This document shows positions 2,289 to 7,264 of a stretch of 64,000 nucleotides of DNA, one piece after another; the first letter of the stretch is position 1; each line of letters opens with the position of its first letter. The position numbers were made by a program, and so were the translations under genes. Under the pieces are notes generated by a model. The model did not search any database. It was not told the origin of the DNA and saw nothing but the letters and a program-made list of their open reading frames with translations. The stretch is from Escherichia phage vB_EcoM_G2540-3. The stretch lies in the sequence record MK327944.1, one strand, 5' to 3'.

Positions 2289-3707
2289 TTATGGATAGGT
2301 ATAAATGATACCAGTTTCTAAAGCAGTTTTATGAATGATGTATCCATTGCGCGATTCTTGAACATCAACTTCTGGATAGTCTTTCATCATCTTCTGAAGA
2401 GTGTAACGATGCAGGTAGTATTTACTATCTGGATCTTCAGTTTTCCAATCTTTACCTTCTTCAGTCATTTTTTGGATTTCATCCATAACCCACCAACCGC
2501 ACCAGATATAAGCTGAGCTACGATGTGGAAGAGGATGAACATAAGGTAATTCACCTTCTGGTTCCGGAGCAACTTTATCAGTCACTTGAACTTGACCTGT
2601 GGCTTTAACTGTTTTACTATCATAGTCAGTTGCTGTAACGACAGCAGTAACTTCAATAGTTTGACTTCCAATAGATGAGGTATCAACAGTATATACGTTA
2701 GTTGACCCTTCCACAGGAGAAGAATCTTTCTTCCATGAGTAAGTAATTTGTGCTGCTTCAGGTGCGCCATTAACATTAGCAGTAAATGTAGCCGAAGCAT
2801 CTTGCTGAACATTAATAGAAGGAGGAGTCAATGTAACCTGTGGATTCATTGTCTTCTTATTAACTGTCAATGATACTTCATTGGAAGTAACTTCCTTTTC
2901 ATTATAATTTTCTGCAGTTACTTGGGCTACGCATTTAATTCTTTTTACTCCACTTGTAGTTGGAGTATAGTTAAATGTAGAGTTAGTTTCTCCACCAACT
3001 TGTGAATCATCTACATACCACTGATACGTAGCAGACGCTCCGTCAGGTTGAGAAGCTAATGCAGCAGTAAATTGAACCGGGGTTCCAATTACTCCAGCAG
3101 CAGGACTAGCAGGAGTTACTGCCAAGGTAGTTGTCTGTGTCTTTTTATTAACTGTCAATGATACTTCATTGGAAGTAACGCTCAGTGCATCATAATCTGT
3201 CGCAGTTACTTGAGCTACACACTTAATTTTTTTAACTCCGCTTGTAGTAGGAGTATAATTGAATGTAGCAGAAGTTGCTTCGCTCACAGGAGAACCGTCA
3301 ACGTACCATTGATACGTAGCAGATGCGCCCGATGGCTGTGAAGCTAAGGCAGCAGTAAATTCAACGGCTGTTCCGATTACTCCTTCTGGAGGACTATTAG
3401 GAGTTACAGCTAAAGTAGTTGTCTGTGTTTTATTTTGAACTGTAATAGTTGTACTAATTTCAGCTGTTTCAGCTTCAGAATCAGGAATAGTATTTGTTGC
3501 AACTACCTTAATAGTCTTTTGACCAGCAGGTCCTTTTAATACATAATCAAAAGTTGCTGCTGATCCTTCTTGGGGAGCATTATCTACGCTCCAAGCATAG
3601 GTAATAGTTCCACCTCCAGTTTCACCACTGGGTGTAGCAGTAAACTGCTTGGTTTCATCAATAACCCCTGTTGGTGTTTTAGGAGTTATATCAACTGTAA
3701 AAGCCAT
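2289..3707 (-). CDS. hoc: Highly immunogenic outer capsid protein Hoc with tandem Ig-like domains
   Basis: 472 aa with repeated Ig-like modules (…TYQWYVD…FNYTPTTSGVK.IKCVAQVTA…); position between rnlB and inh as in T4. Confidence 0.85.
   Translation of the reverse strand: MAFTVDITPKTPTGVIDETKQFTATPSGETGGGTITYAWSVDNAPQEGSAATFDYVLKGPAGQKTIKVVATNTIPDSEAETAEISTTITVQNKTQTTTLAVTPNSPPEGVIGTAVEFTAALASQPSGASATYQWYVDGSPVSEATSATFNYTPTTSGVKKIKCVAQVTATDYDALSVTSNEVSLTVNKKTQTTTLAVTPASPAAGVIGTPVQFTAALASQPDGASATYQWYVDDSQVGGETNSTFNYTPTTSGVKRIKCVAQVTAENYNEKEVTSNEVSLTVNKKTMNPQVTLTPPSINVQQDASATFTANVNGAPEAAQITYSWKKDSSPVEGSTNVYTVDTSSIGSQTIEVTAVVTATDYDSKTVKATGQVQVTDKVAPEPEGELPYVHPLPHRSSAYIWCGWWVMDEIQKMTEEGKDWKTEDPDSKYYLHRYTLQKMMKDYPEVDVQESRNGYIIHKTALETGIIYTYP
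2858..3433. repeat. Two tandem ~288-bp repeats (approx 85-90% identical) inside hoc encoding duplicated Ig-like domains
   Basis: Motif ttattaactgtcaatgatacttcattggaagtaac recurs at 2858 and 3146; protein shows two near-identical 96-aa modules. Confidence 0.8.
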
Positions 3708-3716
3708 AAGTTATCC

Positions 3717-4397
3717 TTATTTTAATGTTACGAAAGAAGAATTGCGTGTTTCACGAATTAGAACTGATCCGTCACGATTAATGTAGTAAATTAAGCTAAA
3801 TAAGGTTTGGTGTGCCGACGCGTGTTCAAAACTAGTTGGGTGAGATTTCCAATCCGGAGTTTCAGCAATCCACTGGTAAATCCACCAAGGAACCGTGCAA
3901 AATCCTGGATTTTTTCCAATCAACTGAAGATTCGGGCTAAAGTTTTCTGGAAGAGTGAATACAGACGGCTTTTCAGATTCAATAATCTCAGCTACAGCCT
4001 GTTCGAATTTTTCTTCAACAAAAGGAGTATCTTCAATCAAAACATCGATATTTTCAGGAATTTTATCCGTTTCTACTACTTCAATTTTAATGTCAGATTT
4101 AACCGGAGAATCAATCAGAAGTGCTGCTTCTGGATTGACTTCTTCATCGTCATATTTTAACCCCTCTGCGGCATCAGCAGCATTTATTAAGTCTTTAATA
4201 GATAACCCATCAGTCTCTGGCATAGGTTCACTAGCGAGCTTCTGGAGGGCTTCTTCAATATCAATAACGATATTATCAAAAGATTTATTCTTTTTGACCT
4301 TTATACCAAACTGTTCAGCATATTCAGCTAATTTAGCCTTAGCTTCTTTATTATCATCAAGAGCCTTCAGCTCTGCAATATAATCTTTATCTATCAT
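3717..4397 (-). CDS. inh: Inhibitor of prohead protease (Inh)
   Basis: 226 aa, same length and position as T4 Inh next to hoc. Confidence 0.75.
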   Translation of the reverse strand: MIDKDYIAELKALDDNKEAKAKLAEYAEQFGIKVKKNKSFDNIVIDIEEALQKLASEPMPETDGLSIKDLINAADAAEGLKYDDEEVNPEAALLIDSPVKSDIKIEVVETDKIPENIDVLIEDTPFVEEKFEQAVAEIIESEKPSVFTLPENFSPNLQLIGKNPGFCTVPWWIYQWIAETPDWKSHPTSFEHASAHQTLFSLIYYINRDGSVLIRETRNSSFVTLK

Positions 4398-4446
4398 AAT
4401 ATTTCCTCAGTATAAATATAGATATATTTATTACTCGGAAAATAGT

Positions 4447-5064
4447 ATGTACCACTTTGTATATGAAACAACAAATCTAATAAATGGTAAAAAGTATATA
4501 GGAAAACACTCTACTGATGACTTGAATGATGGTTACCTTGGTTCCGGTAAGGCAATTCAGCAGGCTATAAAGAAATATGGTGAAAACAATTTCTCTAGAA
4601 CAATACTAAAAGAGTTTAAAACTTCCGAAGAAGCGTACATGTATGAAGAAGAAATTATAACTCCTGAAATAATAAAAAGCAAAAATTATTATAATATGAA
4701 ACCTGGCGGAATTGGTGGAATTGTTATGACTACAGAGGTTATAGCAAAGATGAAAGAATCTTCCGCTAAGAGATTTGAAAACTCACCGGGCACGGTATTA
4801 GGTACAACTTGTTACACTAATGGAACTAAAAATATTTTTATTAAGCCTGGAGAACTTGTTCCAGAAGGATTTGTAAAAGGGATGGTTCATCCTAATAGAA
4901 AGTCCAGAAAAGGATGTAAAGTCAAACCGACTACCACAGGAACTTTTTGGGTCAATAATGGTGCAATAAATAAATTAATACAACCAGACGGTATTATTCC
5001 CGACGGATTTATTAAAGGTCGTCTCATGAAAAGAGATTCTAAAGGCAAATTTAGTAAGGCATAA
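4447..5064 (+). CDS. segE: GIY-YIG homing endonuclease, SegE-like
   Basis: N-terminal GIY-YIG module (YHFVYETTNLINGKKYIGKHS…); located between inh and uvsW exactly where T4 segE lies. Confidence 0.8.
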   Translation: MYHFVYETTNLINGKKYIGKHSTDDLNDGYLGSGKAIQQAIKKYGENNFSRTILKEFKTSEEAYMYEEEIITPEIIKSKNYYNMKPGGIGGIVMTTEVIAKMKESSAKRFENSPGTVLGTTCYTNGTKNIFIKPGELVPEGFVKGMVHPNRKSRKGCKVKPTTTGTFWVNNGAINKLIQPDGIIPDGFIKGRLMKRDSKGKFSKA

Positions 5065-5066
5065 TT

Positions 5067-6575
5067 ATGGATATTAAAGTACATTTTCACGACTTCAGTC
5101 ATGTACGCATCGATTGTGAAGAGAGCACGTTCCACGAATTAAGAGATTTCTTTTCGTTTGAGGCCGATGGATATAGATTTAACCCTCGCTTCAGATATGG
5201 CAACTGGGATGGACGAATCCGTCTTTTAGATTATAATCGTCTTCTTCCGTTTGGCTTAGTCGGGCAAATTAAAAAGTTCTGTGATAACTTTGGCTATAAA
5301 GCCTGGATTGACCCGCAAATTAACGAAAAAGAAGAATTATCAAGAAAAGATTTTGATGAATGGCTTTCTAAATTAGAAATCTATTCAGGAAATAAAAGAA
5401 TTGAACCGCACTGGTATCAAAAAGATGCAGTGTTCGAAGGATTAGTTAATCGTCGTAGAATTCTTAATCTTCCAACATCCGCAGGTAAATCTTTAATTCA
5501 AGCTTTGCTTGCACGTTATTATTTGGAAAATTATGAAGGTAAAATTCTTATCATTGTTCCAACAACTGCTCTGACAACTCAGATGGCTGATGACTTCGTC
5601 GACTATCGTTTATTCAGTCATGCAATGATAAAGAAAATTGGTGGCGGAGCATCAAAAGATGATAAATATAAAAATGATGCACCAGTCGTTGTTGGTACAT
5701 GGCAAACTGTAGTTAAACAACCGAAAGAATGGTTCTCACAGTTTGGAATGATGATGAATGATGAATGTCATCTTGCTACAGGAAAAAGTATTTCATCTAT
5801 CATATCAGGTTTAAATAACTGCATGTTCAAATTCGGTTTGTCTGGTTCATTACGTGATGGCAAAGCCAATATCATGCAGTATGTTGGAATGTTTGGTGAA
5901 ATATTTAAGCCAGTAACGACTTCTAAATTAATGGAAGATGGACAAGTAACTGAGCTAAAAATTAATAGTATTTTTCTTCGCTATCCAGATGAGTTCACTA
6001 CTAAATTAAAGGGAAAAACTTATCAAGAAGAAATAAAAATTATTACTGGGCTCAGTAAAAGAAATAAATGGATCGCTAAATTAGCTATTAAGCTTGCGCA
6101 AAAAGATGAAAACGCTTTTGTCATGTTTAAACATGTATCACATGGTAAAGCTATTTTCGATTTAATTAAAAACGAATACGATAAAGTTTATTACGTATCA
6201 GGGGAAGTTGATACAGAAACCCGCAATATAATGAAAACCTTAGCTGAAAACGGTAAAGGAATAATTATAGTAGCTAGTTATGGTGTATTTTCTACTGGTA
6301 TTTCAGTTAAAAATCTGCATCACGTTGTTTTAGCACACGGTGTTAAATCAAAAATCATTGTATTACAAACAATCGGTCGTGTATTACGTAAGCATGGTTC
6401 TAAAACAATCGCAACAGTCTGGGACCTCATAGATGACGCGGGTGTAGTTTCTAAATCAAAAACATCTTCTAAAAAATACTCGCATTTAAACTATCTTTTA
6501 AAACATGGACTTGATCGTATTCAGCGTTATGCTGATGAAAAGTTTAATTATGTGATGAAAGAGGTTAAACTTTGA
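5067..6575 (+). CDS. uvsW: UvsW RNA-DNA/DNA helicase
   Basis: 502 aa, SF2 helicase motifs (LNLPTSAGKS Walker A, DECH box); N-terminus MDIKVHFHDF. Confidence 0.92.
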   Translation: MDIKVHFHDFSHVRIDCEESTFHELRDFFSFEADGYRFNPRFRYGNWDGRIRLLDYNRLLPFGLVGQIKKFCDNFGYKAWIDPQINEKEELSRKDFDEWLSKLEIYSGNKRIEPHWYQKDAVFEGLVNRRRILNLPTSAGKSLIQALLARYYLENYEGKILIIVPTTALTTQMADDFVDYRLFSHAMIKKIGGGASKDDKYKNDAPVVVGTWQTVVKQPKEWFSQFGMMMNDECHLATGKSISSIISGLNNCMFKFGLSGSLRDGKANIMQYVGMFGEIFKPVTTSKLMEDGQVTELKINSIFLRYPDEFTTKLKGKTYQEEIKIITGLSKRNKWIAKLAIKLAQKDENAFVMFKHVSHGKAIFDLIKNEYDKVYYVSGEVDTETRNIMKTLAENGKGIIIVASYGVFSTGISVKNLHHVVLAHGVKSKIIVLQTIGRVLRKHGSKTIATVWDLIDDAGVVSKSKTSSKKYSHLNYLLKHGLDRIQRYADEKFNYVMKEVKL

Positions 6576-7264
6576 ATTATAAATTAATATATGATAATTT
6601 AATTAATAGAGCCCAAAATCGGGCTCGCCTTAATGGATACACTGAAACACATCATATAATTCCTAGATGTATGGGTGGTACAAATGATAAGTGTAATTTA
6701 GTAGAACTAACGGCTGAAGAACATTTTATAGCCCATAAACTTTTAGCTAAAATTCATCCAAACCATTACGGTATAATTAAAGCTGTTATATGTATGGGGA
6801 TGAATTCAAATACTCATGAAAGACACGTTAATAAATCTTACGCATGGGAACGTCGTAAAATGGCAGAACTTCAATCCGGCGAAGGTAATCCATTTTACGG
6901 AAAACACCATACGGAAGAACATAAACAATATATGTCAAAACTCATGAAAAGTCGTCCAATTACATGGGGAAATAAAATTAGTAAAACTAAAAGAATGAAC
7001 CCAACGAAATGGACTGAAGAAGCTAAAAGATTACATTCAATCAATCAATCGGGTAAAAATAACGGCATGTATGGAAGGAAACATTCCGCTAAATCTATTC
7101 AGAAAATTAAAGATAACATGCCAGATAATTCAGGAGCTAATAACCCAGCTGCTAAACCTATAGAAGTAAATGGTGTTAAGTATAAATGTATGAAAGATGC
7201 TTCTAAAGCTACTGGATTATCAATGTACAAACTAAGAATACTTAGAAAAACAGTTAATTTATAA
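6572..7264 (+). CDS. HNH homing endonuclease, MobE-like, apparent TTG start overlapping uvsW stop
   Basis: HNH motif HHIIPRCMGG…NLVELTAEEHFIAH; N-terminus nearly identical in pattern to MobE at 33443-34177; repeated NUMOD-like G.HH..E/KH motifs. Confidence 0.8.
   Translation: MNYKLIYDNLINRAQNRARLNGYTETHHIIPRCMGGTNDKCNLVELTAEEHFIAHKLLAKIHPNHYGIIKAVICMGMNSNTHERHVNKSYAWERRKMAELQSGEGNPFYGKHHTEEHKQYMSKLMKSRPITWGNKISKTKRMNPTKWTEEAKRLHSINQSGKNNGMYGRKHSAKSIQKIKDNMPDNSGANNPAAKPIEVNGVKYKCMKDASKATGLSMYKLRILRKTVNL

Follow-up and report, generated by a model that had tools for sequence, protein, structure and literature searches.

The window, a stretch of 64,000 nucleotides of a Tequatrovirus (T4-like) genome, carries on its minus strand, at positions 2289 to 3707, a reading frame that runs uninterrupted over 472 amino acids and ends in a TAA stop codon (2289 to 2291). 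This gene is hoc and its product a T4-type Hoc, as the first-pass annotation had called it from the letters. The open reading frame list, the relatives and the searches agree on this point: phmmer matches the protein to T4 Hoc (PDB 5vf3_Z) with E = 9e-218, the whole protein matches phrog_1149, "Hoc-like head decoration" (E = 8e-139), and the gene order rnlB, 24.2, 24.3, hoc, inh, a segE-like GIY-YIG gene and uvsW is the same as in T4. The window hoc, used as the query, has matches in 678 phage records. Over its whole length, it is 99.5% identical to the annotated gene of Escherichia phage vB_EcoM_G2133 (G2133), the identities to the genes of NBG2 and PP01 are 98.2% and 96.1%, and the G2133 locus around hoc, from inh to 24.3, 24.2 and rnlB, matches the window in its order.

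Putative expression signals, read from the sequence, flank the gene on the same minus strand. A Shine-Dalgarno-like AAGGA (3714 to 3718) lies 6 nt 5' of the hoc ATG and overlaps the stop codon of inh, and a hairpin resembling an intrinsic terminator, GGGGC-TTCG-GCCCC followed by a T-rich run (2258 to 2283), stands just 3' of hoc; the G2133 record has a terminator annotated at the equivalent position. No T4 late promoter TATAAATA was found on the minus strand near 3708 to 4500, upstream of hoc, and the genome-wide count of TATAAATA is not above chance. The gene may be cotranscribed with inh.

The protein consists of four Ig-like modules and a C-terminal capsid-binding domain, all encoded on the minus strand. 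Ig-like domain 1 (D1; amino acids 1 to 92, positions 3432 to 3707) aligns with T4 Hoc residues 1 to 92 and is modeled as all-beta with a pLDDT of 86 to 94. It is followed by the two copies of a duplicated Ig-like module, namely D2a, of the "a" type described below (amino acids 93 to 188, positions 3144 to 3431), as delimited by repeat finders, alignment, and BLASTP, and D2b, of the "b" type (amino acids 189 to 284, positions 2856 to 3143), which in the alignment corresponds to the greater part of T4 domain 2. Ig-like domain 3 (D3; amino acids 285 to 378, positions 2574 to 2855) aligns with T4 Hoc residues ~189 to 282 and is also all-beta in the model, and the capsid-binding domain (amino acids 379 to 472, positions 2292 to 2573) is near-identical to T4 Hoc 283 to 376. 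Taken alone, this C-terminal segment matches phrog_1149 (E = 2e-54) and phrog_21694 (E = 7e-43), and it is mostly invariant in an alignment of 45 Hocs. The best Pfam PKD stretch falls on amino acids 197 to 267, in D2b (42.8 bits for a cutoff of 23.5), and Ig_3 and I-set fall on amino acids 289 to 374, in D3; the scores on the window Hoc are 29.9 for Ig_2 (cutoff of 27) and 26.4 for I-set (cutoff of 23.7).

An AlphaFold2 model, for which a 45-sequence alignment was the input, contains four all-beta modules at residues 1 to 91, 93 to 188, 189 to 284, and 285 to 376, with block pLDDT values mostly of 88 to 96 (83 to 95 for D2a) and a seven-strand pattern common to D2a and D2b; the C-terminal domain is modeled with low confidence (pLDDT of 33 to 67). 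The best PDB matches in Foldseek are four-Ig ectodomains (Dscam Ig1-4, Sidekick Ig1-4, and ICAM-5 D1-D4), and 4p99, an extended tandem beta-sandwich adhesin, is matched as well. Each of D2a and D2b is predicted to form a beta-sandwich of its own, and the boundaries of the 288-bp units coincide with the domain boundaries of the model. The earlier proposal that each unit encodes a complete Ig-like module is, therefore, upheld both by Pfam and by the model boundaries.

The length of 472 amino acids had been set against ~376 for T4, and this comparison holds from the reading frame on one side and from T4 Hoc (PDB 5vf3_Z and 8t1x; T4p181 of NC_000866, with a hoc of 1131 bp) on the other. The two genes occupy the same locus, and their D1, D3, and capsid-binding domains are collinear and highly similar. 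T4 Hoc 1-103 and 93-376 align to window Hoc 1-103 and 189-472, leaving exactly one 96-amino-acid unit extra in the window, which thus has two D2 modules where T4 has one, the T4 D2 being mostly equivalent to D2b.

Divergence between the two copies of domain 2

Tandem Repeats Finder (TRF) reports one array at 2850 to 3443, with a period of 288, 2.1 copies, 79% matches, 1% indels, and a score of 743, while an ungapped repeat finder gives units at 2850 to 3137 and 3138 to 3425, also at 79%. At the DNA level, the full extent of the homology (2850 to 3443; 2.1 units) also takes in the last 12 nt of D1 and the first 6 nt of D3. In codon register, D2a and D2b align without a gap and are identical at 226 of 288 nucleotides and 76 of 96 amino acids (BLASTP, E = 1e-52). 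The tandem units of ~288 bp that had been placed at 2858 to 3433 are, thus, confirmed, with codon-register coordinates that agree within 2 nt. Being of equal length, head-to-tail, in frame and each a whole domain, these units are a tandem domain duplication.

How alike the two copies are is another matter. Self-alignment of the Hoc modules, the check that the first-pass annotation had proposed, places D2a and D2b far closer to each other (79%) than any other pair, since D1-D2a, D1-D2b, D1-D3, D2a-D3, and D2b-D3 are each 31 to 38% identical (D2a against D3, E = 5e-11 over 63 residues). They are the most alike pair in Hoc, but to call them near-identical was an overstatement, as 62 nucleotides and 20 amino acids differ between them. 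Codon by codon, there are 28 synonymous and 20 nonsynonymous differences, and the Nei-Gojobori estimates are a dS of ~0.75 and a dN of ~0.14. Between Tequatrovirus hoc alleles, the dS in D1, D3, and the C-terminal domain ranges from 0.0 to 0.39, so that the D2a/D2b value is about twice the largest of these. The resulting dN/dS of ~0.19 indicates that purifying selection maintains both copies of D2.

The differences are unevenly distributed along the module. Most of the amino acid differences (16 of 20) lie outside the predicted strands, with clusters at module positions 46 to 55 and 78 to 82, from which we predict that D2a and D2b present unlike loop surfaces, differing mainly in two loops, on the same scaffold. 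The unit ends, in turn, are nearly alike, at 23 of 24 nt at the 3' end and 20 of 24 nt at the 5' end, and the motif ACA GTT (CAA) AAT AAA/AAG ACA CAG ACA ACT AC is seen at both the D1/D2a and the D2a/D2b junction. This repeat homology could provide a substrate for unequal recombination.

Copy number and module types among related Hocs

A search of a protein collection returned 901 relatives, of which the best 120 cluster representatives were analyzed together with the window Hoc (121 sequences). Among these best 120 of 901 relatives, the lengths were 376 amino acids (79 sequences), 472 amino acids (29 sequences), and 567 to 570 amino acids (9 sequences), with a few off-sizes. A module HMM applied to the 121 Hocs found one D2-type module in 81, two in 31, and three in 9. 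The D2 modules cluster as three types, a (with the window D2a), b (with D2b and most of T4 D2), and c. Single-module Hocs are of type b (57), a (17), or c (7), and the multicopy architectures are a-b (26), a-b-c (5), a-b-b (3), a-c (3), b-c (1), and a followed by an unassigned module (2); the a-b state of the window is, thus, the commonest multicopy form. The order a, then b, then c is kept in all 40 multicopy genes and reversed in none of the 40, a conservation which may partly reflect a single origin spread by recombination, as the 121 sequences are phylogenetically nonindependent. At the amino acid level, D2a is 100% identical to the sole D2 of some 376-amino-acid Hocs and D2b 99% identical to the sole D2 of others, while at the 20 amino acid sites that separate a from b, the D2 modules are extensively mosaic.

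The frequency of the long form was estimated from the span of the locus in 60 phage records, taken at even intervals from the 678 that match; this span was ~1419 bp in 19 records and ~1131 bp in 30. The long hoc is, thus, present in about one-third of the sequenced relatives, including PP01, NBG2, BF15, slur13, and CAM-21, and the 1419-bp gene is found in many independent isolates and in metagenome assemblies. The comparison with the Hoc lengths of related phages, which had also been proposed, leaves the window Hoc longer than that of T4 but gives its length no rarity, the 472-amino-acid form being common (about one-third of the sampled Tequatrovirus records). The 472-amino-acid Hocs of vB_EcoM_G2133, NBG2, PP01, BF15, slur13, CAM-21, and others belong to the same allele class as that of the window and differ from it in nothing material; the names given to the protein in their records are Hoc, "PKD domain protein", and "head outer capsid protein". 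The window Hoc hence belongs to a common, unremarkable allele class of a known protein and is best seen as an array in its two-copy state, not as a novel duplication. In Escherichia phages UGKSEcP1 and UGKSEcP2 and metagenomic relatives, Hocs of 568 to 570 amino acids contain the same array in the same a-then-b order plus a third D2-type module (c or b), making five Ig-like domains, and TRF resolves a three-copy gene as an array of 3.1 units. A 100-bp query spanning the D2a/D2b junction also matched single-copy genes in megablast, as joined pieces with a coverage of 62 to 86%.

Concerted evolution of the copies was not seen among the analyzed genomes. The identity of copies within a genome (0.784) was compared with that between genomes (0.795; permutation p = 1.0), and none of these genomes had an array with homogenized copies, no pair being more than 85% identical. 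Gene conversion between copies was, therefore, rejected, within-genome identity not being above between-genome identity.

Near-identical backbones with different module numbers give the closest view of these changes. Shigella phage SF2-1 has a 376-amino-acid Hoc whose D1, D2, D3, and C-terminal domain are 99.3 to 99.7% identical at the DNA level to D1, D2b, D3, and the C-terminal domain of the window. Its sole D2 matches the window D2b at 287 of 288 nt, and once D2a is removed from the window hoc, 6 of 1131 nt distinguish it from that of SF2-1. The 21% divergence of D2a from D2b rules out that this indel arose as a fresh local copy of D2b, so that either the SF2-1 lineage lost D2a precisely or an a-type module was acquired. 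When the backbones (D1, D3, and the C-terminal domain) were clustered at a divergence of 3% or less, 11 of 47 clusters contained mixed copy-number classes, and 18 of 30 two-copy Hocs had their nearest backbone in another copy-number class. Copy number is, thus, uncoupled from the rest of hoc.

In one such series, a three-copy Hoc (P0006) and two two-copy Hocs (P0040 and P0036) have identical backbones and a one-copy Hoc (P0119) one that is 99.6% identical. The shorter genes of this series are single-switch chimeras, in which the 5' part matches the upstream module and the 3' part a downstream one, a signature which is exactly that expected if unequal crossover had occurred between tandem units. 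At the DNA level, another Hoc (P0120) is a clean a-to-b chimera. Single-switch chimeras could also arise if single-copy genes of types a and b underwent ordinary allelic recombination. The T4 D2 is of the b type up to its last 11 informative nucleotide sites, where it is of the a type; it is a b-to-a chimera and runs opposite to the deletion-type chimeras. Whole-module gain and loss in hoc are recurrent and recent. Alleles that differ by whole units on near-identical backgrounds, together with junction chimeras in the expected direction, identify the locus as a copy-number-variable array, from which we infer the recombination mechanism considered below.

Origin of the two-copy gene

We propose, as the probable explanation, that hoc carries an old ordered array of Ig-like modules, present in one, two, or three copies and reshaped by unequal homologous recombination, which in the window adds one Ig domain to the capsid fiber. 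Types a and b would be old paralogues within an ordered array (a, b, and sometimes c). The 288-bp units, 76 to 79% identical and with nearly identical ends, could then undergo unequal homologous recombination with one another, and ordinary recombination between coinfecting phages could also take place, so that whole modules would be lost or swapped in frame. Genes with a, b, or c alone, with a chimeric module, or with a-b, a-c, b-c, or a-b-c arrays would be the expected outcome, on backbones that are otherwise near-identical.

With moderate confidence, we favor an old array that was repeatedly trimmed and exchanged, with loss more often than gain, because the a, b, c order is conserved, the chimeras are of the deletion type, and single-copy genes offer no long homology for a gain. 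The confidence is moderate because the sequences are nonindependent, allelic recombination mimics chimeras, the T4 D2 is reversed, and there is no usable outgroup for gain versus loss, the middle domain of the sister Klebsiella phages matching D3 better than D2. The first-pass annotation had implied that the long form was a new gain; the chimera directions and the fixed module order suggest instead that the short forms, like that of T4, often arose from longer arrays by deletion.

The same annotation had implied a recent or genome-specific duplication, in which a single-copy, T4-like hoc would have doubled its domain 2 in situ in its own recent lineage. The perfect head-to-tail, in-frame period of 288 bp and the conserved unit ends are what such an event would leave, and the units had looked near-identical at first reading; the event is nevertheless very improbable, as the 62 differences in 288 nt amount to a dS about twice the deepest allelic dS of the neighboring domains, each copy is 99 to 100% identical in amino acids to the sole D2 of other phages and 79% identical to its own neighbor, and the a-b arrangement is present in 26 of the 121 analyzed Hocs and in about one-third of the records, with no genome whose copies exceed 85% identity. 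A lineage-specific recent duplication would leave two copies closest to each other and with a low dS, and D2a and D2b show neither property. Tandem repeats are a classic cause of assembly error, and a second unit that was misassembled, or a long reading frame that is not made, would also explain the window gene. We regard such an assembly or annotation artifact as the least credible origin of all and reject it: 62 differing positions allow the units to be assembled unambiguously, the same 1419-bp gene recurs in the independent isolates and metagenome assemblies, and the reading frame is intact and under purifying selection, with its ribosome-binding site and terminator.

A gain by recombination between phages has more in its favor, and we consider it unlikely rather than implausible. 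Here, the single-copy genes would be ancestral, a and b would have begun as alleles and not as paralogues, and an unequal or illegitimate exchange between a gene contributing D1 and an a-type D2, like that of the single-copy relative P0089, and one contributing b, D3, and the C-terminal domain, like that of SF2-1, would have produced the a-b form, possibly more than once. T4-type phages recombine at very high frequency, and both a-only and b-only single-copy genes exist. P0089 combines a window-like D1 (99.3%) with an a-type D2, its D3 and C-terminal domain being divergent (93 to 95%), and SF2-1 matches everything but D2a, so that together they show the pattern expected of two parents. However, repeated gains should yield b-a as often as a-b, whereas all 40 multicopy genes are collinear; in single-copy genes, the end of D2 adjoins D3, leaving only ~12 to 14 nt of homology for the exchange; and where backbones are identical, the direction of the chimeras is that of deletion. 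It is possible that a single gain then spread through the flanking homology, or that the original a-b event consisted of an exchange between one phage with a alone and another with b alone.

Beyond the proposed origin in an old, recombining array, a tentative extension, possible but doubtful, is that the D2 region works as a maintained, ordered a-b-c cassette system, in which modules are continually lost and occasionally regained and selection keeps several fiber lengths and loop repertoires. Selection would also keep neighboring copies dissimilar, a proposal which comes from the lack of any array with copies more than 85% identical among the analyzed genomes. If this were the case, Hoc length would be a tunable adherence trait for different mucosal or environmental niches, and the Klebsiella T4-like phages would have reached the same solution independently via a different module.

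Other tandem Ig-like systems, fiber length, and mucus motifs

The Klebsiella lineage offers the nearest parallel outside the Tequatrovirus array. Klebsiella phage Marfa (MN044033, referred to as L008) and a second Klebsiella T4-like phage (L007) have Hocs of 471 to 472 amino acids with one Ig-like domain more than T4, but the repeated module is of the D3 type, unlike the D2 type of the window, and the protein is ~50% identical overall. TRF did not detect the duplication at the DNA level in the L007 hoc, because the copies are too diverged, and it is visible in protein comparison only. This lineage is itself polymorphic, with gene spans of ~1416 versus ~1076 to 1134 bp; relatives of these two phages have Hocs of 373 to 377 amino acids, and another (L013) has a Hoc of 282 amino acids without one middle module. 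The Klebsiella D3-type duplication is an independent event.

A variable number of Ig domains in Hoc is already known from the literature. Klebsiella phage PMBT63 has a four-Ig Hoc (PMC13435897), other Hocs carry one Ig domain more or fewer (PMC13435897; PMC11853027), the PhiPNJ-9 Hoc has three domains (PMC11853027), and Hoc homologues form strings of up to 10 Ig domains, as in Serratia phage Muldoon (PMC10385173). The Hocs of PhiPNJ-9, L013, and Muldoon share with the window Hoc the combination of a constant capsid-binding domain with a variable number of Ig-like modules, in other lineages and with other counts. Our literature searches found no explicit account of the Tequatrovirus D2 duplication or array. 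A comparable organization exists in bacterial surface adhesins, whose tandem Ig-like arrays vary in repeat number by recombination. Like the window array, these consist of in-frame, whole-domain repeats that vary via recombination between units, and the window model matches one of their structures (4p99); the adhesin units are often near-identical, whereas those of the window type are 15 to 25% diverged, ordered, and nonhomogenized.

Hoc is the protein behind the bacteriophage-adherence-to-mucus (BAM) model and the main display scaffold on T4 capsids. In T4, it forms 155 fibers of 180 Å, with one monomer in the middle of every gp23 hexamer, and it is dispensable for infectivity (PMC10385173). 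As its C-terminal domain is near-identical to that of T4, the window Hoc should bind the centers of gp23 hexamers through this unchanged domain, as in T4. Its fiber should be one Ig domain longer than the 180-Å fiber of T4, an addition of ~40 to 45 Å by estimate. A changed adherence to mucus or other surfaces, which such a longer fiber could bring, as the first-pass annotation had suggested, is a reasonable expectation by homology and from the model. The window hoc and the SF2-1 hoc constitute a ready-made, near-isogenic natural pair differing by one whole Ig module, and such pairs could serve to test the effect of fiber length and module number on mucin binding, diffusion in mucus, immunogenicity, and display geometry.

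At the motif level, both D2 copies end with NEVSLT, at amino acids 180 to 185 (3153 to 3170, minus strand) in D2a and 276 to 281 (2865 to 2882, minus strand) in D2b. In domain 2 of the PhiPNJ-9 Hoc, where the MUC2-binding site was mapped experimentally, residues S183, L184, and T185 of this motif are reported to bind MUC2, and E29 and G33 are reported to be critical in PhiPNJ-6 (PMC11853027). The window D1 has both E29 and G33. For the window allele, the two NEVSLT copies and the E29/G33 pair are leads only for mucin binding. The NEVSLT motif is nondiscriminating, because T4 Hoc has it too, whereas residue 29 is E in the window Hoc and Q in T4 Hoc.

Length variants of Hoc and divergence between neighbouring copies

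The Hoc of Escherichia phage UGKSEcP1 (568 aa) carries a three-copy version of the a-b array of the window, encoded at 1265-2146 of its hoc locus (L024), where TRF detected a period of 288 with 3.1 copies and 76% matches; its modules are ordered a, then a mosaic b, then c-like. Eight more Hoc representatives of 567 to 570 aa were found among the 120 best of 901 relatives. In none of the multi-copy Hocs, including the 31 two-copy Hocs with that of the window (2856-3431) among them, were adjacent D2-type copies more than 85% identical, and copy pairs within a genome were slightly less identical (0.784) than random pairs between genomes (0.795). One possible cause of such dissimilar neighbours is that near-identical 288-bp repeats are unstable in a phage that recombines so readily; another is selection against identical adjacent Ig domains.

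Among Klebsiella T4-like phages, the Hocs of 471 to 472 aa in Klebsiella phage Marfa (L008, 1501-2916) and in a second locus (L007, 1501-2916) contain the D3-type module twice, and their relatives encode Hocs of 373 to 377 aa. This long form arose by its own independent duplication, of the D3-type module, whereas the module repeated in the window is D2. A 282-aa Hoc (L013, 1501-2349) has two Ig-like domains only, i.e., D1 and one D3-type domain.

Domain 1 residues with a reported role in mucin binding in PhiPNJ-6

Domain 1 of the window's Hoc carries E29 (codon at 3621-3623) and G33 (codon at 3609-3611), the two residues on which MUC2 binding by the PhiPNJ-6 Hoc reportedly depends critically, as cited in PMC11853027. 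Across 45 aligned Hocs, G33 is invariant and position 29 is variable, T4 having Q29 in place of E29.

Genes neighbouring hoc

A segE-like GIY-YIG homing-endonuclease gene (4447-5064, plus strand; Pfam SegE_GIY-YIG, E=3e-9) lies between inh and uvsW, about 740 bp from hoc. Comparison of five loci (L002, L024, L025, L026, and L027) located it also in L026, as in T4, and not in Shigella phage SF2-1 (L002), UGKSEcP1, or L025, in which the helicase gene directly follows inh. The window and SF2-1 are 98.5% identical on the side of hoc and rnlB, and identity falls to 93.9% towards inh. A mobile endonuclease this near to hoc could favour co-conversion and the exchange of alleles there. An exact T4 late-promoter-like motif, TATAAATA (4411-4418, plus strand), precedes the ATG of the segE-like gene by about 30 nt; the motif is absent upstream of hoc and inh (minus strand, 3708-4500), and its count over the whole window is not above chance.

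Further downstream, the window has a 502-aa uvsW open reading frame (5067-6575, plus strand) overlapped by a separate one (6572-7264, plus strand), whereas the T4 RefSeq record has one 1764-bp uvsW, annotated with a note on sequence discrepancies there. The two-frame layout, annotated likewise in Escherichia phage vB_EcoM_G2133, probably corresponds to the corrected UvsW plus UvsW.1 arrangement.
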